From NCBI RefSeq assembly GCF_002995495.1, contig NZ_PVZV01000009.1, forward strand, positions 106,888-170,887: a stretch of 64,000 nt of DNA, given 5' to 3'. The translations under genes were made by a program, and so were the position numbers. Positions 5,906 to 55,196 of this stretch are shown piece by piece (the first letter of the stretch is position 1; the number at the start of each line of letters is the position of its first letter). The DNA is from Actinocorallia populi (GTDB lineage Bacteria; Actinomycetota; Actinomycetes; Streptosporangiales; Streptosporangiaceae). The notes beneath the pieces were generated by a model. That model made no database searches and was not told the origin of the DNA. It saw only the letters and a list, made by a program, of their open reading frames with translations.

Positions 5906-5906
5906 T

Positions 5907-6791
5907 GTGCGTAAGATTTCCGCGGTTCTGCTGGCCGGAGCGTTGGTGACGGGTTGTGCGGACTCGGAGGCGATGAAGGGTGAGAGTTCAGGAGAAGTGC
6001 GCTCTATCTCCTCGATCGATGAGATTCGGTTGCCACTGGACGCTTATCAGCCCGAACACCAGAAGATTGTGACCTTCTTGAGGGCGCAGGAACTGCTGGA
6101 GCGAGATTGCTTGAAGAGGTTCGGCATTAATCGCGTACCGCGCAGCGATGCATATTATGAGACCTTGGCTGCGAGCGCTTCCCCTTCGCTCTCTCTCTGG
6201 CTGGGAGTAACCAGTGAAGAACTGGCCGGCAGAGACGGCTACGGAGTAGATCCTGTAGAGGTTCTGGTGCAGGAGGATAGTGGAGCACCTCCAGCAGAGC
6301 AGAGGGACGTTCTTGAAGGGAGGATCGCCGAATACTCGGGACAGCCTGTGCCGGAGAGAGGCTGTACCGGAGAGGCGGTGGACAGGCTCGGATTGACCGG
6401 TACGAGCGTCGCACCGACTTCAGTGGACAATCTAGGAGAGGGGAGCCTTAGAACGCTGGCGAACACCTCGGCCCGATCAGATCCCCAAATGGAGAAGCTG
6501 AACAAAGCCTGGAATGACTGCATGAACGAGGCTGGCTATGAGGATCTCCGTGCTCCGGGGCCAAGATATCAGCGTTCTCTTGGAGAGTCGATATCGACCA
6601 AAGAGCAACAAATGGCTTTGGCGGATGTGAAATGCAAGAATAAATTGAATTATATGGGGGTCTGGTCGGCGGTTCAAGGGCGATATGAGCAGCAACTAGT
6701 AGACAAAAATTTTGAGGTGCTGGAGCAGCGTAAAAAGGTGGTCGATGACCAGATTCGACGTGCTACGCAAATTCTCGGCACTGGCTCGTGA
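5907..6791 (+). CDS. Hypothetical lipoprotein
   Basis: Lipobox LLAGALVTGC directly after a GTG start at 5907. The start is ambiguous: the track ORF begins at TTG 5880 and TTG 5889 is also in frame. Cys-containing, no recognisable domain. Sits in the lower-GC core. Confidence 0.5.
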   Translation: MRKISAVLLAGALVTGCADSEAMKGESSGEVRSISSIDEIRLPLDAYQPEHQKIVTFLRAQELLERDCLKRFGINRVPRSDAYYETLAASASPSLSLWLGVTSEELAGRDGYGVDPVEVLVQEDSGAPPAEQRDVLEGRIAEYSGQPVPERGCTGEAVDRLGLTGTSVAPTSVDNLGEGSLRTLANTSARSDPQMEKLNKAWNDCMNEAGYEDLRAPGPRYQRSLGESISTKEQQMALADVKCKNKLNYMGVWSAVQGRYEQQLVDKNFEVLEQRKKVVDDQIRRATQILGTGS

Positions 6792-7750
6792 GCGGAAGGG
6801 AAAAAACCGGGGCTTTTCTGGGCGCAGTGGGTCTGCTGGCGCTGAGTTGGACCCTACAGGGCAGGGGGTGGGCGGATGCCGTAGCGGCGGCTGCTGGAGG
6901 GCTGTTGTTGCTCAGCGGAGCCCTTCTGTGGTCGCTTCCGAACCGGATTCGTCTGCAAGCCTGGGCTTGCGGAGTCCTGGCTGCGGCGTCCATGGTGCTG
7001 CCGATCTACGCCGCACCGATTACGAAAGGGGAAGTGGCAGCCCGCGAGGCCGCGCGGATTGTTGGGGATGGCCTTGTGATGGTTCGGCCTCTTAGGACAG
7101 TGGACGGCACGGTGGACAGTGAATGGCGCCGAATGCTTGCAGAACGTCACCCGATGATCATTATTGGTGTAGGTGAATACTGGTATGCGGACTGCGACGT
7201 TCTGGAGTACCTGGGCCCCTTTCAAGAGGGATGCCCCAAGGAGCCGACGCCGTTCGAAGCTGCCTATCGGCAGACTGCGCTGGTCAGGACAGCGGTAGCC
7301 TGGCTGGGGAGAGGTGGGATGACTGTCGGCTCTGAGTATTCCCCTGATGAGATCGTTGGTTACCTCGTTTTCAACCAAACAGGAGTAGACGGATACCGAG
7401 AGATCTCGGCTGCGGCTTATGCGGCCTTCTCCGCTCCTTGGATCCAGCGTCCCGGTGATCTGTGGCTTGGCGCAGGTTATGAAAAAGACCAGTGGGCCCA
7501 GCGATTCCGGTTGTTGGGCTTGGTGACGTTGTGGAGTTTCGCTTTGGTGGCTGCAGTCTTCGGCGCGAGATGGTTGATCGTCGGCGGAACCGCAGCGGGT
7601 GTGGCGATCGGTGGCTGGGCCTGGTATTTGGCACAGACAGGACGCCCTACCGCCGACACCGGCCCCTGGACCTTTGCACTCTGGGCACTCAGCGGGGTTC
7701 TGATTCTCCAAGTGATAGTCGCCGGACTCCGAACGAACCAGCACACATGA
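6788..7750 (+). CDS. Hypothetical integral membrane protein
   Basis: 320-aa ORF with multiple predicted TM helices at both ends (…LLALSWTLQGRGW…, …WLIVGGTAAGVAIGGWAWYLA…). Its start overlaps the stop of the preceding gene. Confidence 0.5.
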   Translation: MSGREKTGAFLGAVGLLALSWTLQGRGWADAVAAAAGGLLLLSGALLWSLPNRIRLQAWACGVLAAASMVLPIYAAPITKGEVAAREAARIVGDGLVMVRPLRTVDGTVDSEWRRMLAERHPMIIIGVGEYWYADCDVLEYLGPFQEGCPKEPTPFEAAYRQTALVRTAVAWLGRGGMTVGSEYSPDEIVGYLVFNQTGVDGYREISAAAYAAFSAPWIQRPGDLWLGAGYEKDQWAQRFRLLGLVTLWSFALVAAVFGARWLIVGGTAAGVAIGGWAWYLAQTGRPTADTGPWTFALWALSGVLILQVIVAGLRTNQHT

Positions 7751-7844
7751 ATATTTAGCAGGGGCGAGATGAAGCGCTTCGGGTCTGATGGAGACTGGTC
7801 TGCCCCGAGATATATGGAGTCGGGTTGCTGGACTTCATGCCACG

Positions 7845-8700
7845 GTGGGTATTTTCTCGAACTGTATCGGGGTGGACATGTCCAGGGCGCTGTGGCGGCG
7901 TCGGCGGTTGTGCCAGATCTCCAGGTACTCGAAGATCGCGTTGGCGAGCTCCACCCAGGTGTGCCAGCACTGCCGGTCGAGGAGTTCGACCTGCATGCAG
8001 GACCAGAACGACTGACTCCATCATCGCGTTGAATCGCTTCAGGCAGCGCATGATCTCGAGTTTGACTTTCTTTCCGCGGTGCGTCGCGCGGCGTATTCGC
8101 TGGTCGGTTGGTGGAACCGCATCCGGCTGAAGGCGATGCGATGCAAAGCAGCAGCCTCGATCTTTCATAGGGTCGGTCAAGTCGCGTAGCGACCTGACCG
8201 ACCGCTGTTTCCAGCGGTAGTTCAGCTTGGTTGCCCGGCTGTCGACTTGGGTGGGCGGGGTTCCATGGGCTCGGGTGGTCTCCTTCCTGATGTTGCAGGG
8301 ACGGTTGGTGCTGGTCAGTGGGCCGGTAAAGCCTGTAGTCGGGTGATCGCGCTGATGATCAAGTCGGTCCAGGGTCAGGTCCGCCGCGGACGAAGCGTGC
8401 GGCGCAGGAGAGCAGCCGCAGGCGCAGGCGTTTGGCCTTCCAGCGGCAGGCCGGGTGCTCGGGCAGGGCGAGTAGTTGCGCCCGGGCCAGGAGTTTGCAG
8501 GCCAGTGCGACGAGCTCGCACCAGATCTAGTTTTGGGTGAAGTCGTGCAGGGGCAGGTTCCGCAGCCCGGTGTCCTTCGCGCATCGGATGCGGTCCTCAC
8601 AACGTGCCCGCCGCCGGTGCCTCAGTTCGAGGTCGGCGAGCTGAGGCACCGGCGGGCGTTGGTGACGAACACGGTGAAACGGTGCCCGTCCACGTTGGTG
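7845..8700 (-). pseudogene. IS3-family transposase (OrfB-like), frameshifted/degenerate remnant
   Basis: The minus strand encodes the characteristic IS3 C-terminus …SFWSCMQVELLDRQCWHTWVELANAIFEYLEIWHNRRRRHSALDMSTPIQFE*, ending at 7845. The upstream part (…NAMMES…, DRGCCFASHRLQ similar to DRGSQYTSxxFQ) continues in other frames, which implies several frameshifts. The upstream extent is approximate. Confidence 0.6.
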
Positions 8701-25063: not shown

Positions 25064-26353
25064 TCACCGGTAGCACTCCAGGAAGATCGCCTCGGCGAGG
25101 GCGAGGTTCTCGATCTCGGACGGGTCGACGCTCTCGTCGGCCGCGTGGATGAGCGCGCGGGGCTCCTCGACGCCCATCAGCATGATTTCGGCGTCGGGGA
25201 AGTGCCGCTGGAACGCCCCGCACAGCGGGATGGAGCCGCCTTGGCCCTGCGTCACGACCTTCCTGCCGTACGCCTCGGAGAGCGCGGCGGTCATCGCGGT
25301 GTAGGCGGGGCCGCCCGTACGGGCGAGGAAGGGCCGGCCCAGCGACTCCAGCTCGATCTCGACGCGGGCGTGCCAGGGCGTGACGTCCGCCAGGTGGGCG
25401 GTGAGGGCGTCGTAGGCGTCCTCCGGGTCCATGTCCGGCGGGATCCGCAGGTTGAGGCGGGCCCGCGCGGTCGGCTGGACGGCGGCGACGGACCCGACGG
25501 CGGGCGGGCAGTCCAGGCCCAGGACGGTCAGCGCGGGCCGGGCCCAGAGCATGTCGGCGATCGTCCCGGTGCCCGTGACGGCGACCCCGTCGAGGATCCC
25601 GGCGTCCTGCCGGAACTGCTCGACCGGGTACTGCGCGCCGTCCCAGCGCTGGTCGCACGGCAGTCCCCGGATGGTCGTGTTGCCCGACGCGTCGCGGAGC
25701 GTCCCCAGCATGTGGACGAGCGCGGCGAGCGCGTCCGGAGCGGCCCCGCCGTACATGCCCGAGTGCAGGGCGCCCGCCATCGTCGTCACCGTGACCAGCA
25801 CGTTGACCTGACCGCGCAGGCACGTCGTGAACGTCGGCACGCCCACCGCGAGGTTCCCGGTGTCGCCGATGATGATCGCGTCGGCCTCGAAGACGTCGGG
25901 ATGCCGCTCCAGGAACCGCTCCAGCCCGTCCGTCCCCTGCTCCTCGGACCCCTCGACGACGACCTTGACGCCCACGGCCGGCTCGGGCACCGCCCGCAAC
26001 GCCGTCAGGTGCATGACGATGTTGCCCTTGCAGTCGGCGGCCCCCCGCCCGAACCACCGCCCGTCCCGGTCGGCCAGCTCCCACGGCGACGAACTCCACC
26101 CCTCCCCGGGCGGCTGGACGTCGTAGTGCGAGTACAGCAGGACGGTGGGCGCCCCCTCGGGCCCCGGCCGGTGCCCCACCACGGCCTGGCTCCCGTCCGG
26201 CGTCTCGTACAGCTTGCAGGGCACCCCGGCCCCGGTGAACGCGTCCGCCGTCCACTGCGCCGCCCGCAGGCACTCCTCGGCGGGGAACCGCTCCGGGTCC
26301 GCCACCGACCGCATCGCCACCAGCTCACCCAGATCCCGCCGCGCCCGCCCCAT
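25064..26353 (-). CDS. dapE: M20-family succinyl-diaminopimelate desuccinylase-like dipeptidase
   Basis: Contains the M20 metal-binding motifs and a dimerisation domain. The track ORF (25064..26662) reads through the tRNA-Lys region, so the start is placed at the internal MGRARRDLGELV (26353). A GTG start at 26380 is also possible. Confidence 0.7.
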   Translation of the reverse strand: MGRARRDLGELVAMRSVADPERFPAEECLRAAQWTADAFTGAGVPCKLYETPDGSQAVVGHRPGPEGAPTVLLYSHYDVQPPGEGWSSSPWELADRDGRWFGRGAADCKGNIVMHLTALRAVPEPAVGVKVVVEGSEEQGTDGLERFLERHPDVFEADAIIIGDTGNLAVGVPTFTTCLRGQVNVLVTVTTMAGALHSGMYGGAAPDALAALVHMLGTLRDASGNTTIRGLPCDQRWDGAQYPVEQFRQDAGILDGVAVTGTGTIADMLWARPALTVLGLDCPPAVGSVAAVQPTARARLNLRIPPDMDPEDAYDALTAHLADVTPWHARVEIELESLGRPFLARTGGPAYTAMTAALSEAYGRKVVTQGQGGSIPLCGAFQRHFPDAEIMLMGVEEPRALIHAADESVDPSEIENLALAEAIFLECYR

Positions 26354-26589
26354 CAACCCGGCAACCAGCCCACGATCCACGCCCGCTCCCCCCGAACCCG
26401 ACGCCGTCCTCACCCCGCCCCTTCCCCCCCGAACCCACCCCGAAAATCCCCGACCCCCCGTGATCCACCAAAACCCACTGGACTCCCACCGGGCCGAACC
26501 GGCAGAATCCTGAGCTGTCCGCCCCGTACGGCGTTCTCCCGGCCGCCTGCGATTCGGACGACAGCCCGGCAGATGGCATGATGAAGGAC

Positions 26590-26661
26590 GGGTCGCTAGC
26601 TCAATGGCAGAGCTCCGGACTTTTAATCCGTAGGTTGTGGGTTCGAGTCCCACGCGACCCA
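26590..26661 (+). tRNA. tRNA-Lys (anticodon TTT)
   Basis: GGGTCGCTAGCTCAATGGCAGAGCTCCGGACTTTTAATCCGTAGGTTGTGGGTTCGAGTCCCACGCGACCCA folds as a cloverleaf with anticodon loop CTTTTAA. Confidence 0.9.
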
Positions 26662-26667
26662 CAGCAC

Positions 26668-30377: not shown

Positions 30378-30415
30378 GAATGAACCGAATTGACTAGGTT
30401 CACGTCTGAGGGGGC

Positions 30416-31015
30416 GTGAACGAGTTCCTGGACATCGTGCTCGCCCCGCCGACCGTGGTCTTCACCGTGCTGCTGGTGCTGGTCGTCGGTTACTGGGTGC
30501 TGACCATCCTGGGACTGGACCTGCTGGAGACCGACGTCGACCTGCTCGGCGCGATCGGCCTGCGCGGCCTCCCCTCGTCCGTCGTCATCTCGCTGTTCGT
30601 GGCGTTCACCTGGTTCCTCTGCCTGACCGGCTACGCGTTCCTGGACGAACTTCCCTGGGACGGCGGCCCGCTGGACCTGCTGGTCGCGCCCGTCGCGCTG
30701 ACCGGCGGCTGGCTGGCCACCCGGCTGCTGGTCAACCCGCTGCGGTACCTGCTGCCGGAGCCCAAGGTGCCCTCGCGGGACGACTTCATCGGCCGCATGT
30801 GCGTGATCCGGACGGGCACCGTCACCGCCCACTTCGGCCAGGCCGAGGTGCACTCCGAGGACGGCTCCTCGGCGCTGCTGCAGGTGCGCAAGCCCGGTGA
30901 CGAGGAGCTGACCGCAGGCGACACCGCGCTGATCTTCGAATACGACGCGGAGGGCGAGTTCTTCTGGGTGATGCCCTACGACGCCGCCCTCGACCCCCAC
31001 AAGAAGGGCCTCTGA
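30416..31015 (+). CDS. YqiJ/NfeD-like membrane protein (TM region + C-terminal OB-fold)
   Basis: 199 aa with N-terminal TM helices and a C-terminal beta-rich soluble domain. It is immediately followed (2-nt gap) by a flotillin gene, as in the yqiJK and NfeD-SPFH pairs. Confidence 0.65.
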   Translation: MNEFLDIVLAPPTVVFTVLLVLVVGYWVLTILGLDLLETDVDLLGAIGLRGLPSSVVISLFVAFTWFLCLTGYAFLDELPWDGGPLDLLVAPVALTGGWLATRLLVNPLRYLLPEPKVPSRDDFIGRMCVIRTGTVTAHFGQAEVHSEDGSSALLQVRKPGDEELTAGDTALIFEYDAEGEFFWVMPYDAALDPHKKGL

Positions 31016-31016
31016 G

Positions 31017-32984
31017 TTGGAAACCGTGTCCATCGGCCTGTTGATCCTGGTAGGCGTCGGCCTGCTGGTCCTCATCGGCGTTCTCTTCGTCATCAGCCGG
31101 CTCTTCCGCAAGGTGGAACAGGGCAAGGCCCTGATCATCTCGAAGGTGAAGAAGGTCGACGTGACCTTCACCGGGGCGGTCGTGCTGCCGGTCCTCCACA
31201 AGGCCGAGTTCATGGACATCTCGGTGAAGACCATCGAGATCGCGCGGACCGGGCGTGAAGGGCTGATCTGCCAGGACAACATCCGCGCCGACATCCGCAT
31301 CACGTTCTTCGTCCGGGTGAACAAGACCGTCGAGGACGTCGTGAAGGTCGCCCAGGCGATCGGCACCACGCGCGCCTCGTCCCAGGACACCCTGCAGGAG
31401 CTGTTCAACGCCAAGTTCTCCGAGGCGCTGAAGACCGTCGGCAAGCAGCTCGACTTCGTCGACCTCTACACCAAGCGCAACGAGTTCCGCGACCAGATCA
31501 TCGAGGTCATCGGCACCGACCTCAACGGCTACAGCCTCGAGGACGCGGCGATCGACTACCTGGAGCAGACCCCGGTCGGCCAGCTCGACAGCCGCAACAT
31601 CCTGGACGCCCAGGGCATCCGGAAGATCACCGAGCTCACCGCGATCGAGCACGTGCGCACCAACGAGTTCCAGCGCAGCGAGGAGAAGGAGATCACCCGG
31701 CAGGACGTCGACGCCCGGGAGGCGATCCTGGAGCTGGAGCGCCGCCAGGCCGACGCCGAGATCCGCCAGAAGCGCGAGATCGAGACCGTGCGGGCGCGCG
31801 AGGAGGCCGAGACCGCGCGGGTCGTGGCCGAGGAGCGGCTGCGGGCGCAGGCCGCGGAGCTGCGCACCGAGGAACAGCTGGGCATCCAGGAGGAGAACAA
31901 GGCGCGGGAGATCGGCGTCGCCGAGCTCAACAAGCGCCGGGTGATGGCCATCGAGGCCGAGCGCATCGAGAAGGACCGCCAGCTCGAGGTGATCGCCCGC
32001 GACCGGGCCACCGAACTGTCCAAGATCGCCAAGGACAAGGAGCTCGAGGCCGAGAAGCGCGACATCGCCGAGGTCGTCCGCGAGCGCGTCGCGGTCGAGA
32101 AGACCGTGGTCGAGCAGGAGGAGAACATCAAGCGCCTCCAGGTCGTGGAGGAGGCCGAGCGCAACCGCCAGGCCGTCATCATCGCCGCGGAGGCCGAGGC
32201 CCAGGAGAACCTGGTCAAGGACATCAAGGCGGCCGAGGCCGCCGAGCAGGCGGCCGGGTTCCGGGCCCGCGAGGAGCTGATCCTCGCCGAGGCGCGCCAG
32301 CAGGCCGCCGACCTCGACGCCCGCGCCATGATCCGGCTCGCCGAGGGCCAGCAGGCCGAGGCCGCCGCGGCGGGCCTGGCCGAGGTCCAGGTCCGCGAGC
32401 GCGACGCCGAGGCGATCGAGAAGCAGGGCCGCGCCGAGGCCGTCATCCTGCGGGAGAAGGCGCTGGCCGAGGCCGAGGCGCTGGAGAAGCAGGGCCGCGC
32501 GGAGGCCGTCGCCGAGCGGGAGAAGGGCCTGGCGCTGGCCGAGGCGACCGAGCAGCTGGGTCGCGCCGAGGCGATCGCCGACCGCGAGAAGGCGATGGCA
32601 GGCGCGGACGCGCTGCGCGAGAAGCTCAAGGGCGAGGCCGAGGGCCTCACCGAGAAGGCCGCCGCGATGGCGGCCCTCACCGAGGCCAGCCGCGGCCACG
32701 AGGAGTTCCGCCTCACCCTGGAGGCCGAGCGCGACCTGCGCCTGGCCGGCCTGGAGATGCAGCGCGACATCGCGCAGGCGCAGGCGAGCGTCGTCTCCAA
32801 GGGCCTGGAGAACGCCGACATCAACATCGTCGGCGGCGACAGCGTCTTCTTCGACAAGCTCGTCGGCTCGATCGCGCTCGGCAAGAGCGTGGACGCCGTC
32901 GTCGAGAACGCCCCGCTCACCGGAGAGCTGGTCGCCGGCCTCGTCGGCGACGTCCTCGGACGGGTCAACGGGACGGCCAAGTGA
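31017..32984 (+). CDS. Flotillin-family (SPFH/band-7) protein with long charged coiled-coil tail
   Basis: N-terminal TM helix, SPFH domain (…ISKVKKVDVTFTGAVVLPVLHKAEFMDISVKTIEIAR…) and an extended E/A/R-rich coiled-coil with AEA repeats, 655 aa in total. Confidence 0.85.
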   Translation: METVSIGLLILVGVGLLVLIGVLFVISRLFRKVEQGKALIISKVKKVDVTFTGAVVLPVLHKAEFMDISVKTIEIARTGREGLICQDNIRADIRITFFVRVNKTVEDVVKVAQAIGTTRASSQDTLQELFNAKFSEALKTVGKQLDFVDLYTKRNEFRDQIIEVIGTDLNGYSLEDAAIDYLEQTPVGQLDSRNILDAQGIRKITELTAIEHVRTNEFQRSEEKEITRQDVDAREAILELERRQADAEIRQKREIETVRAREEAETARVVAEERLRAQAAELRTEEQLGIQEENKAREIGVAELNKRRVMAIEAERIEKDRQLEVIARDRATELSKIAKDKELEAEKRDIAEVVRERVAVEKTVVEQEENIKRLQVVEEAERNRQAVIIAAEAEAQENLVKDIKAAEAAEQAAGFRAREELILAEARQQAADLDARAMIRLAEGQQAEAAAAGLAEVQVRERDAEAIEKQGRAEAVILREKALAEAEALEKQGRAEAVAEREKGLALAEATEQLGRAEAIADREKAMAGADALREKLKGEAEGLTEKAAAMAALTEASRGHEEFRLTLEAERDLRLAGLEMQRDIAQAQASVVSKGLENADINIVGGDSVFFDKLVGSIALGKSVDAVVENAPLTGELVAGLVGDVLGRVNGTAK

Positions 32985-35900
32985 GCGAGCTGGACGCCGG
33001 GACCTACGAGGTACTGAGGTCCCGGCTGACGGCGCAGGCCGCCGAGCTCAAGGAGCGCGCCGAGGCGCTGAACGCCTCCCGGCTGGAGGTGTTCGGCGGC
33101 TCGGAGCTCCGCCTCGTCGGCACCGAGCGGATCCGGACGGCCAACAACTGCGTGCCGCGCGACGCCGTCGCGTTCGGCGGGCTGATGCTGTTCGGCTACA
33201 ACGTCTTCATCGGCATGAAGCCGGAGACGACGGTCTCGGACGTGCTCTCGACGCACCGGTTCGTCCATGACGGGGACACCTTCAGCTTCACCGAGGAGAA
33301 GGCCCCGTTCCTGGAGGACCCCGCCTTCGTCAAGGACTTCGGGGACCTCTACCGGTACTACCGGGACACCCGCCTCATGCAGTTGCGGGTCGTGGACGGC
33401 AAGCTCCTGGCGGTCTTCCAGACCGGCACCGACCAGCGCGTCCTGCGCTGGTCGGTCGACGGGAGCTACCTGGACAACCGGGGGGAGCGGGACCACGTGT
33501 TCCCCCCGCCGTTCGACTTCACCTGGACCGAGACGACCCGCGCCGACCACGTGCTCGGCGAGCACCCGCACGTGTCGATCGAGGGGGAGGTGTTCGTCGA
33601 GACCGTCGGCGGCGACCTCACCATCAAGGTCGAGGACAACACGGCGACGGGCGAGGGCATCTACAGCGAGCCCGTCGACGAGCCGCTGCAGTCGCTGGCG
33701 GACGCCGACATCTCCTACGCCCGCGTCGGGGGGCTGATCCTGCTGCGGATCCGCCCCTACAACGAGACGGCCGTGCGGTACCTGGTCTTCAACACGCGGA
33801 CCAAAGAAGTGCTGCGCCTGGACGGCATCGGGCAGGCATGTCGGCGGCTGCCGGAGGACCACGGGATCATCTTCCCCGGCGGCTACTACCTGGAGACGGG
33901 CGCCGCCAAGACCTTCGACACCGTCACCGACGACCTGGAGTACGAGCGGGTCATCCGTTCGGGCAACGGCGAGGACGTGCTGTACGTCTTCCACGCCCGC
34001 GCGGAGGGCCGCTGGCTGCTGCTGCCGTACAACGTGATCCGCAAGGAGGTCGCGACGCCGCTCGTCGGACACGGTTACTCGCTGTTCGACGACGGCACGC
34101 TCATCATCTTCCGTGCGGACTCGGACGAGCCCACCCGCTCGCACCCGATGCAGGTGTGGCAGACGCCGTTCAAGTCCGATGAGAGCGCTCCGGCGGGCAC
34201 CGGGCCACTGGAGAAGATCGGCAACGCGGACCTGGTGCGCGGCATCTCGGACTGCCTTTCGGTGTCCCGCATGGTCGGGGAGATGGCACCGTCCGTGCCG
34301 GTCTTCGAGGCGCTGATAGCGGCTTGCAGCAGGACTTTCGACCACTACCACTGGCTGGGCGAGCACGGCTTGGCCGAGTCCCTGGCGGCCGTGCGGGACA
34401 CCGCGGGGCAGGTTCTGGAGGAGTTCGAGTCCGTCCAGGTCCTCACCACTCAGGCGACGGAGGCGGTCGAGAAGGCCGCCACCGAGATCACCTCGCTGGT
34501 GCGCCGGGTGCGCGGCGAGATGCCCGCCTCTGCGGACGAGTGGGTACGGCAGTTGGCCGCCCTCCGTGCTCAGCAGGGGCACCTGGTGACGCTGCGGGAG
34601 ATGCGTTACGCCGACCTCGAACGGCTCGACGGGCTGGCCGAGGGACTCGCCGAGGACATCGAGGCGGCCGCGCAGCGGGCTGTGGCCTTCCTGGCGCGCC
34701 CGGATGCCTTCGACGGCTACCGCACGACGGTCGAGGCGCTGGTCGAGGAAGCCGCAGGCATCCGCAAGGTGGCCGAGGCCGAGCCGGTGAGGGACAAGCT
34801 CGCCGAGCAGACCGGGGCGCTGGAGACCGTCACCGAAATCGTCGGTTCACTCGACATCGGCGACGCGACCGTGCGCACGGGCATCCTCGCCCGGATCGGT
34901 GAGGTGCTGGGCGGGGTCAACAGAGCCCGCGCCACCCTGGACGGCCGCCGCCGCGAGCTGCTGTCGGCCGAAGGCAGAGCCGCGTTCGCCGCGGAGTTCG
35001 CGCTGCTGGGCCAGGCCATCACCGCCGCGCTGGCCGCAGCCGGCACGCCCGAGCAGTGCGATGAGCAGCTCGGCAAGCTTCTGCTCCAAGTGGAGTCTCT
35101 GGAGTCGCGTTTCACCGAGTTCGACGACTACCTGGCAGAACTGGAGGCCAAGCGCGAGGACGTCTACGAGGCGTTCTCCTCGCGCAAGCAGGCGCTCCTG
35201 GACGAGCGGACGCGCCGCGCGGACCGGCTCGTGGCGTCCGCCGACCGGATTCTGGGCGGTGTGACGCGGCGGGTGGCCGGTCTGTCGTCGCTGGACGAGG
35301 TCAACACCTACTTCGCGACCGATCCGATGGTCGTGAAGCTCCGTGCTACAGCCGAAGAGCTGCGTGAACTGGGCGACCAGATCCGTGCCGAGGAGCTGGA
35401 AGGGCGGATCAAGACCGCCCGCCAAGAGGCCGGACGGTCCCTGCGCGACCGGCTGGACCTCTTCGACGGCGACACCATCAAGCTGGGACGGCACAGATTC
35501 ATCGTCAACACCCAGCCTGCGGAACTCACCCTCGTCCCGTTCGAGGACCGCCTGGCGTTCACCGTCACGGGCACCGACTACCGCAGTCCCGTCCTGGACC
35601 CGGAATTCGAGTCAACGCGCCCGTATTGGTCGCAGTCGCTCATCTCGGAGAGTCGGGAGGTGTACCGGGCGGAGTACCTGGCGGCCATCCTTCTGGACGA
35701 GGTACGCACGACTGACGGTCTGCTGGAGATCGTGCAGAAGGCGGCTGCCGAGCGTTACGACGAGGGTTACGAGCGCGGCGTGCACGACCACGACGCCGCG
35801 GTGATCCTGGAGGTGCTCATCCGGCTGCGGGATGGCGCGGGGCTGCTGCGATACCCGTCTTCCGCACGGTCAGCGGCGCAGATCTTCTGGACGCACGGCA

Positions 35901-37741
35901 CGGACGATCAGAGCCGTAACGCCTGGCGCACACGGGCGGCGTCGCTCTCGCGTGCCCGGGAGCTCTTCGGCACTCCTCCGGCTCTCACCGCGTTGTCCTC
36001 TGAGCTCGCGGAGGCGATCAAAGCCTTCGGGCACGGTGAAGACGCGGCGCTCGCAGGGGAGTATCTCGTCGCGGAACTGGCCTCGCCGGGCTTCATCACG
36101 AGCAAGTCGGCCCGGGATCTGGTGGAAGGCTTCCACCGTGCGCTGGGCTCGCGCCGCAGCGGTTACGACCAGGATCTGCGTGGTCTGAGCGGGCTGCGTG
36201 AGCGGACCCAGCTCGTTTCGGCCTGGCTCGCCGCCTACGCGGCCGCCCAAGGACTGCCGGACGACGACCTTCCCGAGGCCGTGGCGCTGGAACTGTGCCC
36301 GTCTTTGGACCGCCAGGATTCCTCGGCGTCCATCAAGGGCGTCGCGGAAGGACTGCTCGGCACCCACGCGCGCATCACGGACCGCCGGATGGACATCCGT
36401 CTGGACGAGCTGCTGGCACGTGTCGGGAAGTTCCACAAGGAGCGCGTGCCGGGCTTCCGCGCCTACCAGAAGCGGCGTAACGAACTCGTCGAGAAGGAGC
36501 GCGCACGGCTGCGTCTCCACGAGTTCCAGCCCAAGGTGATGTCGGCGTTCGTCCGCAACAGGCTGCTGGACGAGGTCTACCTCCCGTTGATCGGGGACAA
36601 CCTGGCCAAGCAGCTGGGAGCGGCCGGGGACGCCAAGCGCACCGACCAGATGGGCATGCTGCTGCTCATCTCCCCGCCCGGTTACGGCAAGACGACGCTC
36701 ATGGAGTACGTCGCCTCCCGGCTCGGCCTGGTGTTCGTGAAGGTCAACGGTCCCTCGCTGGGCCACCACGTGACCTCGCTCGACCCGGCCGAGGCGCCCG
36801 ACGCGACGTCGCGCCAGGAGGTCGAAAAGATCAACTTCGCGCTGGAGATGGGCGGCAACGTCCTGCTCTACCTGGACGACATCCAGCACACGTCGCCGGA
36901 ACTGCTGCAGAAGTTCATCTCCCTGTGCGACGCGCAGCGCCGGATCGAGGGCGTCTGGAACGGGCTTACCAAGACCTACGACATGCGCGGCAAGCGCTTC
37001 GCGATCTGCATGGCGGGCAACCCGTACACCGAGTCCGGGCAGCGTTTCCGCATCCCGGACATGCTCGCCAACCGGGCGGACGTGTGGAACCTCGGCGACG
37101 TGCTGTCCGGCAGGGAGGCGCTGTTCTCGCTCAGCTACATCGAGAACTCCCTCACCTCCAACCCGGTCCTGGCACCGCTGTCGACCCGGGACAGGAAGGA
37201 CGTGGAGCTGCTCGTCCGCATGGCCTCGGGTGACGAGGACGTGCGGCCGGACCAGCTCTCGCACCCGTACGCGCGGGTGGAGCTCGACCAGATGCTGTCC
37301 GTCCTGCGCAAGCTGCTGCGCATCCAGCGGGTCGTCCTGGCCAACAACCAGGCCTACATCGCCTCGGCCGCGCAGTCCGACGGGAGCCGCACCGAGCCGC
37401 CGTTCCTGCTCCAGGGCAGCTACCGCAACATGAACAAGCTGGCCGAGAAGGTCGTCCCGGTAATGAACGACGTCGAACTCGAAGCGGTCATCGACGACCA
37501 CTACCTGGGCGAGGCGCAGACGCTCACCAGCGGCGCGGAGGCCAACCTGCTGAAGCTCGCCGAGCTGCGCGGCACGCTCACCGACGAGCAGAAGGAGCGC
37601 TGGGGCGACGTCAAGGCCGCCTACCTGCGCACGCTGGCCCTCGGCGGAGCGGAGGACGACCCGGTCACCCGCGCGGTGGGCGCGCTGGGCCTGCTGGCCG
37701 ACCGGCTGGCCGAGATTCAGCGCACCTTGGGCTCCCGGTGA
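32981..37741 (+). CDS. Giant (1586 aa) multidomain protein: N-terminal beta-rich domain, long coiled-coil, C-terminal MoxR/AAA_5-like ATPase
   Basis: Its GTG start overlaps the flotillin stop (GTGA). The C-terminal region carries Walker A SPPGYGKTTL, Walker B VLLYLDDIQH and an MAGNP sensor-like motif. The 450-900 region is coiled-coil. Proteins of this type may carry generic automated names such as DNA repair ATPase; this is from memory and is not evidence of function. Confidence 0.75.
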   Translation: MSELDAGTYEVLRSRLTAQAAELKERAEALNASRLEVFGGSELRLVGTERIRTANNCVPRDAVAFGGLMLFGYNVFIGMKPETTVSDVLSTHRFVHDGDTFSFTEEKAPFLEDPAFVKDFGDLYRYYRDTRLMQLRVVDGKLLAVFQTGTDQRVLRWSVDGSYLDNRGERDHVFPPPFDFTWTETTRADHVLGEHPHVSIEGEVFVETVGGDLTIKVEDNTATGEGIYSEPVDEPLQSLADADISYARVGGLILLRIRPYNETAVRYLVFNTRTKEVLRLDGIGQACRRLPEDHGIIFPGGYYLETGAAKTFDTVTDDLEYERVIRSGNGEDVLYVFHARAEGRWLLLPYNVIRKEVATPLVGHGYSLFDDGTLIIFRADSDEPTRSHPMQVWQTPFKSDESAPAGTGPLEKIGNADLVRGISDCLSVSRMVGEMAPSVPVFEALIAACSRTFDHYHWLGEHGLAESLAAVRDTAGQVLEEFESVQVLTTQATEAVEKAATEITSLVRRVRGEMPASADEWVRQLAALRAQQGHLVTLREMRYADLERLDGLAEGLAEDIEAAAQRAVAFLARPDAFDGYRTTVEALVEEAAGIRKVAEAEPVRDKLAEQTGALETVTEIVGSLDIGDATVRTGILARIGEVLGGVNRARATLDGRRRELLSAEGRAAFAAEFALLGQAITAALAAAGTPEQCDEQLGKLLLQVESLESRFTEFDDYLAELEAKREDVYEAFSSRKQALLDERTRRADRLVASADRILGGVTRRVAGLSSLDEVNTYFATDPMVVKLRATAEELRELGDQIRAEELEGRIKTARQEAGRSLRDRLDLFDGDTIKLGRHRFIVNTQPAELTLVPFEDRLAFTVTGTDYRSPVLDPEFESTRPYWSQSLISESREVYRAEYLAAILLDEVRTTDGLLEIVQKAAAERYDEGYERGVHDHDAAVILEVLIRLRDGAGLLRYPSSARSAAQIFWTHGTDDQSRNAWRTRAASLSRARELFGTPPALTALSSELAEAIKAFGHGEDAALAGEYLVAELASPGFITSKSARDLVEGFHRALGSRRSGYDQDLRGLSGLRERTQLVSAWLAAYAAAQGLPDDDLPEAVALELCPSLDRQDSSASIKGVAEGLLGTHARITDRRMDIRLDELLARVGKFHKERVPGFRAYQKRRNELVEKERARLRLHEFQPKVMSAFVRNRLLDEVYLPLIGDNLAKQLGAAGDAKRTDQMGMLLLISPPGYGKTTLMEYVASRLGLVFVKVNGPSLGHHVTSLDPAEAPDATSRQEVEKINFALEMGGNVLLYLDDIQHTSPELLQKFISLCDAQRRIEGVWNGLTKTYDMRGKRFAICMAGNPYTESGQRFRIPDMLANRADVWNLGDVLSGREALFSLSYIENSLTSNPVLAPLSTRDRKDVELLVRMASGDEDVRPDQLSHPYARVELDQMLSVLRKLLRIQRVVLANNQAYIASAAQSDGSRTEPPFLLQGSYRNMNKLAEKVVPVMNDVELEAVIDDHYLGEAQTLTSGAEANLLKLAELRGTLTDEQKERWGDVKAAYLRTLALGGAEDDPVTRAVGALGLLADRLAEIQRTLGSR

Positions 37742-37788: not shown

Positions 37789-38046
37789 ATGGCTGATCTG
37801 CGGAACGCCGGAATCGTGCTCGCCGTCACCGGGCTGGCGCACCTCGTCGCCCCGAAGCCGTTCGAGCTGATCACCCGTCCGCTGTTCCCCGAGGGCACCG
37901 GCGACTGGGTGCAGCGCAACGGCGTGACCGAACTCGCGCTCGGCACGGCCATCGCCGTTCCGCAGACCCGCAAGATCGGCCTGGCGGGCCTGGCCGTCTA
38001 CGTCTCCTGGCTGGGCAAGCGAGGCGTGGACGCCTTCCGCAGGTGA
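37789..38046 (+). CDS. Small hydrophobic membrane protein (DoxX-like?)
   Basis: 85-aa ORF with two predicted TM helices and a plausible RBS (AAGGAcaag). Confidence 0.45.
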   Translation: MADLRNAGIVLAVTGLAHLVAPKPFELITRPLFPEGTGDWVQRNGVTELALGTAIAVPQTRKIGLAGLAVYVSWLGKRGVDAFRR

Positions 38047-38153
38047 CGGTCCGTGCACGAGCCGCCGTGTTCGTGCACGGACCGTCGACGACGGACGCGG
38101 CGTGTTCCCAAACGTTCAAGACTCCGCCGGTCGCCCGACCGCACGATGGGCGG

Positions 38154-45422: not shown

Positions 45423-45848
45423 ATGAACGACAAGCTTCCCTTCTGCTCCACCCCCTGGCGGCGCAGTCTTTACGTCCTGCTCTCGGCTCCGCTGAACCTG
45501 ATCTCCCTCCTGGACGGAGGGCGTCTGCGGCGGCGGCTGGGCGGCCGGCTGCTCGGCGGTGAGATCCCGGCCCGGCGGCTGCGCGGGCTGCCGGGGCTGC
45601 CGTTCGATCTGGCGGCGGCGCTGGTGGTCCTCTACGGCTGGTCGGTCGTCCCCATGAACCTGGCGTATCCGCTCCGTCCGCTGATCGGCTTCGACGGATC
45701 GCTGGAGAACGCCTGGGGCGGTCCCACGCTGCTCGGCGCCTGGGCCGTCCACGCCCTGGGCGGGCTGGTCTTCCTGTTCCTCATGCCCTGGGTGGTCGAC
45801 GGCCTCGTGGCCGTGCAGCGCAGGATCCTGGGAGCATCTGCAGGATGA
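45423..45848 (+). CDS. Membrane sensor-domain protein, translationally coupled to the histidine kinase
   Basis: 141 aa with hydrophobic helices. Its stop overlaps the kinase ATG (ATGA). Confidence 0.55.
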   Translation: MNDKLPFCSTPWRRSLYVLLSAPLNLISLLDGGRLRRRLGGRLLGGEIPARRLRGLPGLPFDLAAALVVLYGWSVVPMNLAYPLRPLIGFDGSLENAWGGPTLLGAWAVHALGGLVFLFLMPWVVDGLVAVQRRILGASAG

Positions 45849-50969: not shown

Positions 50970-53900
50970 GTGGCATGGGGACCGAGTGACTCGCGGCAGG
51001 AAGACCTCTTCGACGCCGCCGAGCGCGAGATCAAGGCGGTGGTCTCCGCGAGCTGGTGGCCCACCGCACGGGCCGAGCAGCGCGAACACGCCGTCGCCGG
51101 ACGTGTCGTCGAGCTGCCCGACGCCACCCAGTGGCTCTTCGGCGCCTGGGCGCGCTGGTACCGCAAGCACCCGGGCGACAACCAGTGGTACCTGTGCCCG
51201 CCGCCGTACGCCACGTCCGTCCGGCGGTCGGGCAAGACCGCGGCGGCCGTGTCCGGGCTGCCCCCGCACGTGATCCCGCTCGGGCCCGACTTCGAGGTCA
51301 CCGCGCCCGCCGCGCTGCCGTTCTTCGGCGCCGACCTGGCGCCGCTGACCGCTCGGGTCCGCGCCACCGTCGAGTCGGCGGCGTCGCTGCCGCCCGGCGA
51401 CTTCCCCCGGCCGGAGAACCCGCCGCGCTGGCTGGCCGACTTCTCCCCGGACGCGCCCAACACGGTGGCGGCCTGCTGGGGCGTGATGCTCTGGTGCGCC
51501 TCGGCCCCCGTCTTCGACGCGCAGCGGGACGCCGACCTGCTCGCCCTCTGGGAGCCCTACCGCGCCGCCGCGCTGCCCCGCATCGAGGGGCCGCGCTGGC
51601 TGACCCCGCCGACGCTGGAGGATCTCGTCTCCCTGTACGCCGAGCGGCTGCGCGCGCACAACGTCCAGTCCGCGGTGGTGATCCTGCGGACCATGTGGGC
51701 GACGGCCTCCGCGCTGCGCGACGAGCCCCGGTTCACCGCCCGCGCCGACGCGCTGCTGGCCATCCTCAACGTCACGCTCGCCGACCCGCAGCAGGACTAC
51801 GGCGCGCTGCCGCACGGCGACGCGGCCGTCGCCCAGCTGTGGGTCACCCGCTGCCCGCCGAACCTCAGTCCGGGCCTGCGCGCCGAGAGCTCGCCGGGCG
51901 ACGGGTTCCGGCACCTCTTCTACGACCTGGCCCGCTGCCTGGCGCCGGCGGCGGGGGAGCCGGGCGGGCCCACGTTCGTGGAGCCCCGGCTGATCGCCGC
52001 CGCGCTGCTCGCCGCCGACCTGGCGATCGTCCGCCAGGACCTGGTCGCCGAGGTCACCCGCTGGCTGGACCCGGAGATCCGGTACACCGTCCAGGCGATG
52101 ATCGCCCAGCCGGGCCACCCGCTGCGCCGCCGCTTCTGGCCGATCGACCAGCGGCTGCCGCCGCAGCTGCGCGACGGGGCCTCGGGCAACGGCGAGGAAC
52201 TGCTGGCCGTCCTGTACGCGGTGGCGCTGGGCTGGTGCCGGCTCGGCGGCGGCATCCCCGCCCGGCCGCGCGGCTTCCCCGCGCCGGTCGCGGTGCTGGC
52301 CGAGCTGGTCGGGCTGGAGCGGGCCACCGCCACCACCCCGGCCGCCCCGCCGCCCCCGCCCCAGCAGTGGGGGGCGCCGCCTCAGCAGGGCGCGCCCCAG
52401 CAGGGCGCGCCGTTCCAGCCGGGCGCGTCCCAGCAGGGCGCGCCGCTTCAGCCGGGTATGCCCCAGCCGGGGGCGCCCCAGCAGGGCGAACCACCTCAGC
52501 CCGGCATGCCCCAGCCGGGCACGCCGTTCCAGCAGGGCGCTCCCCAGCCGGGCGCGTCCCAGCAGGGCGCACCGCAGCAGTGGGGGCCGCCCCAGCAGCC
52601 GCACGTCCCGCCGGGCGCCCAGGGCGGGCAGCAGCCCGCTCAGGGGCAGCCGTGGGGCACCCAGCCGCACCAGCGCACCGCCCGTGCCGAGTTCGGCCCG
52701 GACGGGCAGCTCATCCTGCCCGGCCAGGACGCCCGGCCGGCCGAGCCGGGAGCACAGGGCGAGCAGGCGCAGTTCGGCCAGCCGGGCGCGCCGTACCAGA
52801 CGGGCTCCCGGCGTCCGGCGGCCCAGCGGGGCCCCACCGCCGACGAGCTGGCCCAGCAGGCGGGCAAGGCGTTCGGCAAGGCCTGGGAGCGCGCCCGCAA
52901 GCTCGGCGGACGGCTGCTGGGCGGCGGGCCGCAGGCCGACGTGCACTCCACCGGGCCGCTGGGCTTCGACCAGCCGGACGGCCCCCGCCAGCCGCCGATG
53001 CCCTCACCCGCCGGAGCCGACCCCGGCCAGGGCGGGCAGCAGGCGCCCGAGCACGGCACCCGTGTCATGTCCGGGACGATGGTCGGCAACTTCCTGGACT
53101 ACGCGCCGGTGCCGTCCCGGCCCGTCGACGACATCGCCCCGCCCGCGCGGTCGCCCGGCGAGGTGCCGACGGTGACCCGGCGCGGCGTCACGTTCGTGTA
53201 CGGGGCCGAGGACGACGCCGCGGCCTTCCTCGACGCCCTGCCGGTCCCCGGCATCGCCCTGGACGCCACCCAGGTCGCCGCGCGGCCCGGTCCGAACCCC
53301 CGGGCGCCCCAGGCCCCGGCCACGATGCTGGACCAGAGCGCCGCGGCCCTGCTGGAGGCCTCAGGTGCCCCGGCGTCGTTCGACCCGCGCGCCACGATGC
53401 TCGATCCGGGCACGGGAGGCGCCGTCGAGGGCCCGACGCAACCCGACCAGGGCCAGGGCTTCGACCCGCGCGCCACGATGCTCGACCCGTCGGGCGGCCG
53501 CCCGGTGGACTCCAACGCCACGCGGCTCGACCAGGGCGCCGGGCAGCCGGCCGGCCAGGACGCCGCCCGCCCGGTGGATCCGGACGCCACGCTGCTGGAC
53601 CAGGGCGCGGGGCGTCCGGTGGACTCCAACGCCACGCTGCTCGATCAGGGCGCGGGGCGTCCGGTGGACCCGAACGCCACGCTGCTGGACCAGGGCGGCG
53701 CCCGTCCCGCCGACCCGTACGCCACGATGCTCGACGGCGGCGCGGCGGCCGGTCCCGCCGCGGGCCCGGCGGCGGTCTCGGTGCTGCTGGTGGGCGCCCC
53801 GCACACCGGCCAGCGCCGGTTCGCCCGGATGATCGCGGGGATCGTCGGCGACGGGCAGCTGCGCGTCATCGACGCCGAGGAGCTGCGCGGCCTGGCGCTG

Positions 53901-55196
53901 GAGCGGCTGGCGACGCTGTTCGACGAGGGCGGCCAGGGCGCGCCCACCCTGCTGCTGGAGCGGCTGGACGCGGCGGTCCTGGACGCCGCCGACCCGCAGG
54001 TCTTCCTGCGGACGCTGCGCACGGTGCGGGCCAGGGCGCGCGTTCCGATGGTCACCACCTGCGACCCGCGCTCGTTCCGGCGCTTCGCCCAGGAGCACCC
54101 GGAGCTGGAGCGCGTCTTCCGGGTCTTCCACCTGCCGGAGCTGCGCGACGTCGAGGAGCGCGTCACCCTGCTGCGGGTGCTGGCCGACGAGCGGCGCGCC
54201 TCGCTGGACACCGTCGCCTGGGACGCGGCGCGCGAGGACCTCACCCGGCTGCGCGGCCCCGGCGACCTGACCGGCGCCCGGCTCGTCGAGGCCTACCTGG
54301 ACCGGGCCTACCAGCGCGCGCTGGGCCGGGGCGGCGGCGCCAGGGACAGGGTCGTGCTCCAGTCCGCGGACTTCGCGGGCGTGCCCGAGACGATCGAGCC
54401 CGCGCTGCGGCCCGCCGGGGACGTGGACGGCTATCTGGACACCCTGCACCAGATGATCGGCCTGGTGGAGGTCAAGGCCGAGGTGGACCGGCTGGCCGCC
54501 GAGGCCGACGCACCGGTCAACCTGGTCTTCGAGGGGCCGCCGGGAACGGGCAAGGCCACCGTCGCCGGGATCGTCGGCGGCATCTTCGGCGCGCTGGGGG
54601 TGCTGCCGTCCGGGCACCTCATCCAGTGCCGTCCCGAGCACCTGCTGGGCCGCGACGGGCTGGAGACGGAGCTGCGCACCGCCGCGATGGTGCAGCAGGC
54701 CGAGGGCGGCCTGCTCCTGGTGCAGCAGGCCGAGGCGCTCACCCCCGAGGCGGTCGCGGAGCTGTTCCGCGGCTTCCGCGACCACCCGTACCAGCTGGTG
54801 CTGGCCGGCCGCGACCTCGGCGGCTTCCTGCGCGCCAACCCCGACATCGAGGCGACCTTCCTGAAGCTGGACTTCACCCCGCCGACCGACAGGGAGCTGG
54901 TGCAGCTGTTCGTCAAGCTCGCGGAGGCCAAGCTGTACGTGGTGGAGGAGGAGCTGCGGGTCGAGCTGATGACCCGGATCGCGGGGCTGCGGGAGAACGA
55001 GAACTTCGCCTACGGGCGGACGGTCCACCAGTGGTTCGACGAGACGGTGGCGCGCCAGGCCAGGCGGCTGGCCGGCCTGGTCGGCGCGGACGCCATGACG
55101 GCGGCCCGGCTGACCACCCGCGACCTGCCGGAGTCCAACCTGGAGCGCGTGCTGGGCGACCTCAACCAGACGCTGAGGGGCGGCCCGGAGCACTGA
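50970..55196 (+). CDS. Giant (1408 aa) protein: novel N-terminal domain, Pro/Gln-rich linker, 18-aa tandem repeats, two CbxX/CfxQ-type AAA modules (EccA/SpoVK-like)
   Basis: The second AAA module has a canonical Walker A (VFEGPPGTGKATVAGIV) and CbxX-like context (…LHQMIGLVEVKAEVDRL…). The first module is degenerate (VLLVGAPHTGQRRFARMIAGIV). Residues about 450-620 are PQQGAP low complexity, and about 800-930 hold the (A/N)ATMLDQGAGRPVD repeats. A GTG start is used. The overlapping alternate-frame ORF 51056..55264 is rejected. Confidence 0.75.
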   Translation: MAWGPSDSRQEDLFDAAEREIKAVVSASWWPTARAEQREHAVAGRVVELPDATQWLFGAWARWYRKHPGDNQWYLCPPPYATSVRRSGKTAAAVSGLPPHVIPLGPDFEVTAPAALPFFGADLAPLTARVRATVESAASLPPGDFPRPENPPRWLADFSPDAPNTVAACWGVMLWCASAPVFDAQRDADLLALWEPYRAAALPRIEGPRWLTPPTLEDLVSLYAERLRAHNVQSAVVILRTMWATASALRDEPRFTARADALLAILNVTLADPQQDYGALPHGDAAVAQLWVTRCPPNLSPGLRAESSPGDGFRHLFYDLARCLAPAAGEPGGPTFVEPRLIAAALLAADLAIVRQDLVAEVTRWLDPEIRYTVQAMIAQPGHPLRRRFWPIDQRLPPQLRDGASGNGEELLAVLYAVALGWCRLGGGIPARPRGFPAPVAVLAELVGLERATATTPAAPPPPPQQWGAPPQQGAPQQGAPFQPGASQQGAPLQPGMPQPGAPQQGEPPQPGMPQPGTPFQQGAPQPGASQQGAPQQWGPPQQPHVPPGAQGGQQPAQGQPWGTQPHQRTARAEFGPDGQLILPGQDARPAEPGAQGEQAQFGQPGAPYQTGSRRPAAQRGPTADELAQQAGKAFGKAWERARKLGGRLLGGGPQADVHSTGPLGFDQPDGPRQPPMPSPAGADPGQGGQQAPEHGTRVMSGTMVGNFLDYAPVPSRPVDDIAPPARSPGEVPTVTRRGVTFVYGAEDDAAAFLDALPVPGIALDATQVAARPGPNPRAPQAPATMLDQSAAALLEASGAPASFDPRATMLDPGTGGAVEGPTQPDQGQGFDPRATMLDPSGGRPVDSNATRLDQGAGQPAGQDAARPVDPDATLLDQGAGRPVDSNATLLDQGAGRPVDPNATLLDQGGARPADPYATMLDGGAAAGPAAGPAAVSVLLVGAPHTGQRRFARMIAGIVGDGQLRVIDAEELRGLALERLATLFDEGGQGAPTLLLERLDAAVLDAADPQVFLRTLRTVRARARVPMVTTCDPRSFRRFAQEHPELERVFRVFHLPELRDVEERVTLLRVLADERRASLDTVAWDAAREDLTRLRGPGDLTGARLVEAYLDRAYQRALGRGGGARDRVVLQSADFAGVPETIEPALRPAGDVDGYLDTLHQMIGLVEVKAEVDRLAAEADAPVNLVFEGPPGTGKATVAGIVGGIFGALGVLPSGHLIQCRPEHLLGRDGLETELRTAAMVQQAEGGLLLVQQAEALTPEAVAELFRGFRDHPYQLVLAGRDLGGFLRANPDIEATFLKLDFTPPTDRELVQLFVKLAEAKLYVVEEELRVELMTRIAGLRENENFAYGRTVHQWFDETVARQARRLAGLVGADAMTAARLTTRDLPESNLERVLGDLNQTLRGGPEH

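Follow-up and report, generated by a model that had tools for sequence, protein, structure and literature searches.

To our knowledge, the only well-established pairing of an SPFH cage with an AAA+ machine is that of HflK/C with FtsH. AAA+ proteins of the MoxR class, such as CbbQ, NorQ, RavA, and midasin, are ring-shaped remodellers of a partner protein and not nucleic-acid enzymes, and PspA is an established membrane-stress effector. SPFH proteins, including HflK/C, QmcA-YbbJ, and flotillin-1/2, form membrane-attached oligomeric cages (PMC11260169). In a survey of PspA, Ravi et al. (2024, mSystems, PMC11237479) described an operon that joins CesT/Tir-PspA to three further genes, including those for a YqiJ/YuaF protein, a flotillin with a transmembrane (TM) segment and a Band-7 domain, and an ATPase. 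Abbreviated operons without PspA are explicitly mentioned in that work, and its supplementary table gives a string for Dokdonia donghaensis (prototype ANH61663.1) that ends with "Betapropeller+Coiled-coil+AAA-ATPase". The present analysis concerns three adjacent genes in a 64-kb stretch of the Actinocorallia chromosome, hereafter called the window. They encode a membrane protein, a flotillin, and a giant ATPase, and the pairing of this flotillin with this ATPase is near-obligate and reciprocal.

30416-31015, forward strand: gene 1, a 199-aa membrane protein with a GTG start
31017-32984, forward strand: gene 2, a 655-aa flotillin (YqiK-like SPFH protein) with a TTG start
32981-37741, forward strand: gene 3, a 1586-aa cytoplasmic DUF3686-DUF7902-AAA+ protein with a GTG start

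An independent check of the open reading frames (ORFs) placed all three on the forward strand at 30416-37741, as had a preliminary description of this DNA made from the sequence alone. The window has a GC content of about 70%, at which long spurious ORFs are plentiful. The third-position GC is 0.96 in gene 1, 0.98 in gene 2, and 0.92 in gene 3, and the second-position GC is low. The genes can be considered real because this combination is typical of genomes with about 70% GC. Genes 1 and 2 are separated by 1 nt (stop at 31013-31015, start at 31017; TGA-g-TTG), not by the 2 nt reported initially. The reported 4-nt GTGA overlap between the start of gene 3 and the stop of gene 2 is present at 32981-32984.

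A flotillin gene was found upstream of the ATPase gene, on the same strand, in 157 of 159 ATPase loci from at least eight phyla. This count is composed of 77/77 genome loci, 6/6 annotated contexts, 13/13 plasmid records, and 61/63 metagenome loci. For the genome set, 80 species-genome loci were fetched with a diverse alignment of the family, and three contigs that begin at the giant gene were left out. The flotillin homologue lies directly upstream in all 77 loci with upstream sequence, which take in Myxococcota, Clostridia, "Deltaproteobacteria", and proteobacterial metagenome-assembled genomes (MAGs). The six distant contexts are those of Vibrio chagasii, an Acidobacteriota MAG, a PilZ-fused metagenome member, Flavobacterium, Chryseobacterium, and Marivirga. 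The metagenome scan was seeded with members of the Bacteroidota/Vibrio type, and the 63 loci with at least 2.3 kb of upstream sequence were counted; the flotillin is adjacent in 60 of them and stands two inserted genes away in one (L114). Reciprocity is visible in a plasmid collection of 72,556 records. The 13 records that carry the ATPase are exactly those of the 13 best flotillin matches, each of which adjoins the ATPase; scores then fall off steeply, and none of the next 296 flotillins (E >= 1e-25, with the SPFH domain alone aligned) has an ATPase in its record. The arrangement is far beyond chance, since it recurs in 157 of 159 independent loci, and none of the genes flanking the trio in the window is conserved with the module in related loci. 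The concern that homologues of the giant gene might not be syntenic with flotillin elsewhere was not borne out by this survey. The spacing of the two genes varies, with a median gap of 82 nt, a range from -8 to 424 nt, and a 4-nt overlap in 14 of 83 loci. The tight translational coupling noted at the outset is present at this locus (GTGA) but was ruled out as a property of the family.

Some of these loci have uncommon surroundings. At L114 (6032-7833), a weak DUF4760-like gene and a gene for a YhcG/DUF1016 PDDEXK nuclease stand between flotillin and ATPase, which looks like a selfish insertion into the operon. At the metagenome locus L164 (4479-11822), a gene of the AIM24 family and one for an M48 (HtpX-like) peptidase precede the ATPase, and HipA is encoded farther upstream; the presence of an M48 membrane protease hints at quality control of membrane proteins. 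At L165 (4087-9657), the ATPase stands behind a gene for a hybrid histidine kinase. The Vibrio chagasii locus (L081, 1-18821) is island-like and contains RNA ligase, HD/KTI12-AAA_33, R2K ATP-grasp, HipBA, TelA, NUDIX, nicotinamidase-like, and NAPRTase-like genes. The flotillin and the 5-TM counterpart of gene 1 are highly diverged there.

The relation to the published neighbourhood can be traced through Bacteroidota. In Flavobacterium, Chryseobacterium, and Marivirga, a helix-turn-helix gene (divergent) is followed by CesT_Tir, PspA_IM30, a protein of about 215 aa, a protein of about 670 aa, and the DUF3686 ATPase, and the same order occurs on a Hymenobacter plasmid. The Bacteroidota ATPases linked to CesT_Tir/PspA_IM30 are 37-39% identical to the window protein over the aligned region. 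On these sequence grounds, the window ATPase and that of PMC11237479 are assigned to one family, by way of other Bacteroidota loci and not the Dokdonia prototype. In the Bacteroidota-type set of 50 metagenome loci, 24 contain PspA/CesT. Both are absent from the whole 64-kb window and from all 77 genome loci, and PspA is absent from the neighbourhood of the Vibrio, Acidobacteriota, and PilZ-fused loci. Because PspA and CesT are missing from the 64-kb window, the locus is a PspA-less, "abbreviated" form of the published neighbourhood. On the well-studied Pseudomonas fluorescens megaplasmid pQBR103 (L088, 986-14190), the trio is joined to a yjfI-pspA-rhomboid-DUF2491-DUF350-DUF1190-glutathionylspermidine-synthase-like string, which would make up a putative ten-gene membrane-stress operon.

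The giant protein is composed of the following regions:

33044..34351, forward strand: aa 22-457, the DUF3686 region, a divergent beta-propeller-like body with strands at aa 44-394
34418..35320, forward strand: aa ~480-780, a helical heptad-periodic stalk that includes DUF7902 at aa 575-659 (from composition, periodicity, and Pfam)
35474..36526, forward strand: a small beta domain at aa ~832-870, then a large all-helical domain at aa ~896-1182 (AlphaFold2 pLDDT 90.0)
36548..37738, forward strand: aa ~1190-1586, an AAA+ module of the MoxR/AAA_5 class with a helical lid and a C-terminal bundle

Pfam profiles assign PF12458 (DUF3686) with an E value of 4.9e-206 (684.9 bits against a cut-off of 25, profile positions 1-448 of 448), PF25472 (DUF7902) with an E value of 3.3e-29 (101.3 bits against a cut-off of 26), and AAA/AAA_5 at aa ~1225-1350. 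TM prediction returned zero segments. The beta-rich N-terminal domain postulated earlier for residues ~1-440 agrees with a high-confidence model of the strand region, and a structural check, made against PDB structures only, gave a divergent beta-propeller. The propeller body is clasped by an N-terminal helix (aa 6-38) and by helices at aa 409-469. In the stalk, helix-forming residues make up 53-63%, and the 3.5-residue periodicity stands at 1.5-3.3 times the background. What had been described as about 450 residues of coiled coil is indeed a helical heptad-periodic stretch, but its length is 300-370 residues. Residues 900-1150, which had been marked out for domain annotation, fall in the all-helical domain, for which structure comparison gave no informative fold match. 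The family-invariant residues around this domain are D823, G836, E890, R896, G933, H935, and D938. Searches of PDB sequences, run both with single proteins and with a family profile, returned matches at the level of Walker A only, and none for the propeller, the flotillin, or gene 1.

The ATPase motifs SPPGYGKTTL, LLYLDDIQH, and MAGNP, on which a MoxR/AAA_5-like assignment had been based, are all present. Walker A is GYGKTT (aa 1234-1239), Walker B is LLYLDD (aa 1295-1300), sensor-1 is N1347 (in MAGNP), and the candidate arginine finger is R1365 (in LANR). A beta-hairpin lies ahead of sensor-1 at aa ~1321-1334, and the helix-2 insert region (aa ~1257-1274, from the strand after Walker A to the next helix) is modelled without a beta-hairpin. 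The closest structural matches of the module are CbbQ and NorQ, followed by midasin and dynein. Walker B carries DD and not the usual DE at aa 1299-1300 (36875-36880), a feature that is near-invariant across the family.

More than 7000 clusters at 90% identity match the giant protein, and an exhaustive search with the N-terminal domain gave 765 clusters at 50% identity. Full-length members have 1540-2036 aa and can be aligned over their whole length down to 34% identity. Over this whole range, the motifs GYGKT, LDD, MAGNP, and LANR are invariant or nearly so; therefore, nucleotide binding is under selection. The nearest database protein, from Actinocorallia libanotica, is 95% identical, and identity roughly follows taxonomy within Actinomycetota. 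A subset of members from Myxococcota and metagenomes (P0366, P0375, P0384, P0388, P0390-P0392, P0394, and P0408; locus L083, 7001-12520) carry an extra PilZ domain (PF07238), which suggests control of the ATPase by cyclic di-GMP in those lineages. Literature searches found no paper that names DUF3686 or PF12458, and searches on flotillin/DNA repair ATPase, MoxR/SPFH, and pQBR103/PspA likewise returned nothing relevant.

The flotillin has an N-terminal TM segment (aa 8-26), an SPFH/Band_7 domain (aa 32-175; 32.8 bits against a Pfam cut-off of 23.6), a long helical region rich in Ala and Glu (aa ~240-560), and, at aa ~560-640, a C-terminal block that is conserved (HEEFRL...IVGGDSVFFDKLVGSIALGKSVD). 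It matches E. coli YqiK in BLASTP at 6e-35, with 28% identity over 457 aa, and is 44-60% identical over its full length to flotillins of Bacteroidota, Acidobacteriota, and metagenome operons. E. coli YqiK matches the Pfam family Flot (PF15975) at 6.4e-41. The window flotillin does not match this family at E <= 0.01, nor do its Flavobacterium (L084) and Vibrio (L081) relatives at E <= 1; its Flot region is present but diverged. The window flotillin belongs to a distinct subfamily tied specifically to the ATPase, which separates from ordinary flotillins in the plasmid collection. Its length had been called unusual, but at 655 aa it lies below the subfamily median of 681 aa. It stops about 50 aa short of the tail "...(D/N)LT(L/V)SALLxKL...LG(V/L)..." carried by most orthologues from Actinomycetota to Bacteroidota, and the start of the ATPase gene coincides with the flotillin end (region 32900-32984). 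As a universal docking site, this C-terminal tail of about 50 aa was ruled out, the window's flotillin being without it.

The product of gene 1 has three predicted TM segments (aa 7-25, 52-70, and 88-106), with a variable acidic loop behind TM1 in the alignment, and a C-terminal beta domain at aa ~120-190 with the motif GRxCVIRT..FGQAEV..VQVR..G.xALI..FFWV. Its family alignment spans Actinomycetota to Bacteroidota. Compared with E. coli YqiJ by hhalign, the family profile gave a colinear but weak match (E 1e-4, probability 56%). The protein itself matches neither NfeD (PF01957) nor YqiJ_N/YqiJ_OB (PF21001/PF07290) even at E <= 1, and it has no other Pfam match. Two relatives have sub-threshold Pfam matches (YqiJ_N at 0.004 and 0.024, NfeD at 0.022), a clear homologue is found on pQBR103 (E 7e-30), and a Hymenobacter relative is annotated as DUF1449 (YqiJ family). 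Gene 1 is thus only plausibly YqiJ/YuaF-like: of the initial label of a TM protein of the YqiJ/NfeD type, the TM segments and the beta domain stand, and the kinship to YqiJ is weak. A counterpart occurs in 64 of 77 genome loci and in 49 of 50 metagenome loci, and in a block of Streptomyces loci a divergent gene stands upstream in its place. Gene 1 is a frequent yet dispensable accessory of the module.

On balance, we lean towards the view that the module serves membrane-stress maintenance, with an ATP-driven remodeller or chaperone devoted to flotillin assemblies. By analogy with known systems, the flotillin would assemble into a cage or scaffold at the membrane, facing the cytoplasm, to which the YqiJ-like protein would attach via its beta domain; these steps are suggested because SPFH proteins form membrane cages. 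The giant protein would oligomerise via its AAA+ module, its propeller and stalk would engage the flotillin assembly or clients held there, and ATP would be spent to assemble, disassemble, or remodel the assembly under membrane or envelope stress, as might be expected because MoxR-class AAA+ proteins remodel partner proteins. In lineages with CesT/Tir-PspA in the operon, the giant protein would work together with PspA. All partners are predicted to meet at the cytoplasmic face because the giant protein lacks TM segments, the flotillin carries a single N-terminal one, and gene 1 has three. This function is supported by the 157/159 linkage and its reciprocity on plasmids, the unconserved flanks, the topology, the invariant AAA+ motifs, the CbbQ/NorQ matches, the co-operons with PspA, and the concordant reading by Ravi et al. 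(2024). Three points weigh against it. The loci L164 and L165 lack the flotillin, the only two among the 159 ATPase loci to do so. The AAA+ module is placed in the MoxR/AAA_5 clade with a structural margin over other clades that is small to modest. Finally, the DD Walker B seen across the family is not what one usually finds in an active AAA+ motor and could point to slow hydrolysis or a switch-like mode of action.

A more specific version of this view is tentative and, in our judgement, doubtful. The DUF3686 protein might be the first dedicated ATP-driven assembly/disassembly motor of an SPFH/flotillin cage, a "flotillin remodellase" comparable to what Vps4 is for ESCRT-III, with no need for PspA in most lineages. 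Its propeller and helical clasp would bind the conserved C-terminal block of the cognate flotillin subfamily, and it would open or recycle the cage so that membrane-protein clients are released or admitted.

Other explanations have to be weighed against the dedication to flotillin. The main alternative is that the ATPase is a Vps4-like remodeller of PspA, an ESCRT-III homologue, whose polymers it would disassemble or recycle; flotillin and the YqiJ-like protein would form a recruiting platform, and operons without PspA would use a PspA encoded elsewhere. In Flavobacterium, Chryseobacterium, Marivirga, the Hymenobacter plasmid, and pQBR103, the trio does come right after CesT/Tir-PspA, which is also found in 24 of 50 metagenome loci. 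However, PspA is not near the ATPase in any of the 77 genome loci, in the Vibrio, Acidobacteriota, and PilZ-fused loci, or in the 64-kb window, so that its distribution is uneven, whereas the flotillin link is near-universal and reciprocal. The ATPase also falls in the MoxR clade and not in the classical Vps4/meiotic clade, and no MIT-like domain was detected in it, which makes this role unlikely. The choice of CbbQ and NorQ as the best structural matches might point to a maturation chaperone of the MoxR type that activates a specific membrane enzyme or loads its cofactor, as in NorQ/NorD and CbbQ/CbbO, with flotillin as a mere scaffold. This is improbable, since a VWA/MIDAS adaptor or a client enzyme is conserved in none of about 160 neighbourhoods and the conserved partner is flotillin itself.

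An anti-phage or conflict system, in which a membrane-anchored giant NTPase would act as effector or sensor, had been raised as an option in the preliminary description. It would fit a giant multi-domain ATPase with copies on megaplasmids (pQBR103, Deinococcus, Streptomyces, and Hymenobacter), the island-like context in Vibrio chagasii (HipBA, RNA ligase, R2K ATP-grasp, TelA, and NAD-salvage genes), the PDDEXK nuclease gene inserted at L114, and HipA near L164. The searches gave it no support. For the three proteins searched, PADLOC-DB v2 returned P-loop noise only (about 30 residues at E 1e-3 to 1e-2), and zero copies were found in 50,697 phage records and 2.9 million viral contigs. Nuclease, protease, and other effector domains are absent, the flanks are of housekeeping type, identity roughly follows taxonomy in Actinomycetota, and the partners are classical membrane-maintenance proteins. 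For these reasons, a defence function is considered very improbable. The least credible option is the one implied by the database name, a DNA repair ATPase. The name is used by Pfam/NCBI, and the P-loop weakly resembles that of RuvB (E 1e-4 to 6e-3 over about 45-100 residues), but this similarity is limited to the Walker A region, and RuvB models score 20-21 bits where the cut-offs are 282-299. In fold, the ATPase comes nearest to CbbQ/NorQ, and no DNA-binding, nuclease, or SMC/ABC-type domain was found. The invariant partners are membrane proteins, repair genes are not conserved nearby, and the literature searches turned up no paper that backs the name. The doubt cast on this name from the beginning was well placed, as no visible basis for it was found in sequence, structure, partners, or literature.

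The surroundings of the trio in the window are ordinary chromosomal and housekeeping genes. PhoX, DapD, an M20 peptidase, a HisKA_3 kinase, and an ABC-F ATPase lie upstream, and a glyoxalase, a pentapeptide protein, GH1, and SDR genes lie downstream. An 85-aa ORF at 37789-38046, 47 nt past the ATPase stop, has hydrophobic stretches, a third-position GC of 0.91, and AAAGGA before its ATG; it has no Pfam match and no homologue in related loci. As additional operon members, this ORF, the upstream ABC-F ATPase and histidine kinase genes, and the glyoxalase and pentapeptide genes were all rejected, none being conserved in any related locus. Behind the 85-aa ORF lies a perfect 13-bp hairpin (arms 38048-38060 and 38071-38083, 10-nt loop, without a T-run), which is probably the operon terminator. 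In front of the trio, within the 38 nt that separate the ABC-F gene from gene 1, an inverted repeat TGAACC-N10-GGTTCA (30381-30402) lies just 5' of a GAGGGGG ribosome-binding site and could be an operator or a small hairpin. Elsewhere in the window, a tRNA-Lys (TTT) at 26590-26662 overlaps, on the opposite strand, the 5' end of the longest M20-peptidase ORF (25064-26662), and because of this overlap the true start of the peptidase must lie further inside that ORF. A 96-nt tRNA-Ser called by ARAGORN within an ORF (45527-45622) is not confirmed by Rfam and is probably a false positive. Against the background of about 70%, two stretches are outliers in composition: 58% GC at 4001-8000, and 79% GC at 52-54 kb in a 1408-aa ORF (50970-55196; first-position GC 0.80, third-position GC 0.97).

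The preliminary observation is confirmed, and its structural interpretation is for the most part correct. The coupling of flotillin to a giant ATPase had been presented at first as going beyond the canonical pair. The same operon is, however, already contained in PMC11237479, where the same contextual reading of the neighbourhood was reached independently. The locus is a new instance of a neighbourhood known in silico, and its novelty is limited. New here are the quantified reciprocal dependence on flotillin, the optional nature of both PspA and the YqiJ-like gene, the confident domain models with a MoxR-clade assignment, and the clear case against the name "DNA repair ATPase". This misleading name now stands on thousands of proteins, and its correction would follow. 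With the association already published, the value lies in a sharper statement and in the experiments that it enables, not in discovery. A large family (more than 7000 clusters in at least eight phyla) beside its own flotillin subfamily offers a genetically tractable handle in Streptomyces, Chryseobacterium, Proteus, and Pseudomonas with pQBR103. The module bears on the questions of how SPFH cages open, close, and turn over and of what bacterial flotillins do.

Compared with the operon of PMC11237479, the window encodes the same trio in unchanged order, and the architectures agree (propeller, coiled coil, and AAA+; TM and Band-7 flotillin), but the CesT/Tir and PspA dyad is absent. The published account takes up a few sentences within a survey of PspA, and the near-obligate reciprocal link to flotillin, the clade of the ATPase, and its structure are not reported there. 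The pairs YqiJ-YqiK of E. coli and YuaF-FloT (YuaG) of B. subtilis likewise place a beta-domain membrane protein upstream of a flotillin with TM, SPFH, and coiled-coil parts. Unlike in the window, no ATPase stands behind yqiK in E. coli K-12. The ATPase-linked flotillins also form a separate subfamily, with the window flotillin short of Pfam Flot (PF15975) and gene 1 only marginally YqiJ-like. In the HflK/C-FtsH system, an SPFH scaffold is likewise functionally coupled to an AAA+ machine at the membrane. FtsH is a membrane-anchored AAA protease of the classical clade inside a periplasm-facing cage, whereas the window ATPase is a soluble protein of the MoxR class with a propeller and a stalk but without a protease domain; homology is limited to the AAA+ fold. 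With respect to CbbQ/CbbO, NorQ/NorD, RavA/ViaA, and the AAA_5 modules of midasin and dynein, the window ATPase differs in about 1190 unique N-terminal residues, the DD Walker B, and the lack of a VWA/MIDAS partner, which was found neither in the window flanks nor in any annotated context. The module shares with ESCRT-III/Vps4 the concept of a membrane-remodelling polymer with a dedicated AAA+ ATPase, and PspA is a neighbour in some lineages. The clade of the ATPase differs, however, and the conserved partner is an SPFH protein and not an ESCRT-III protein.

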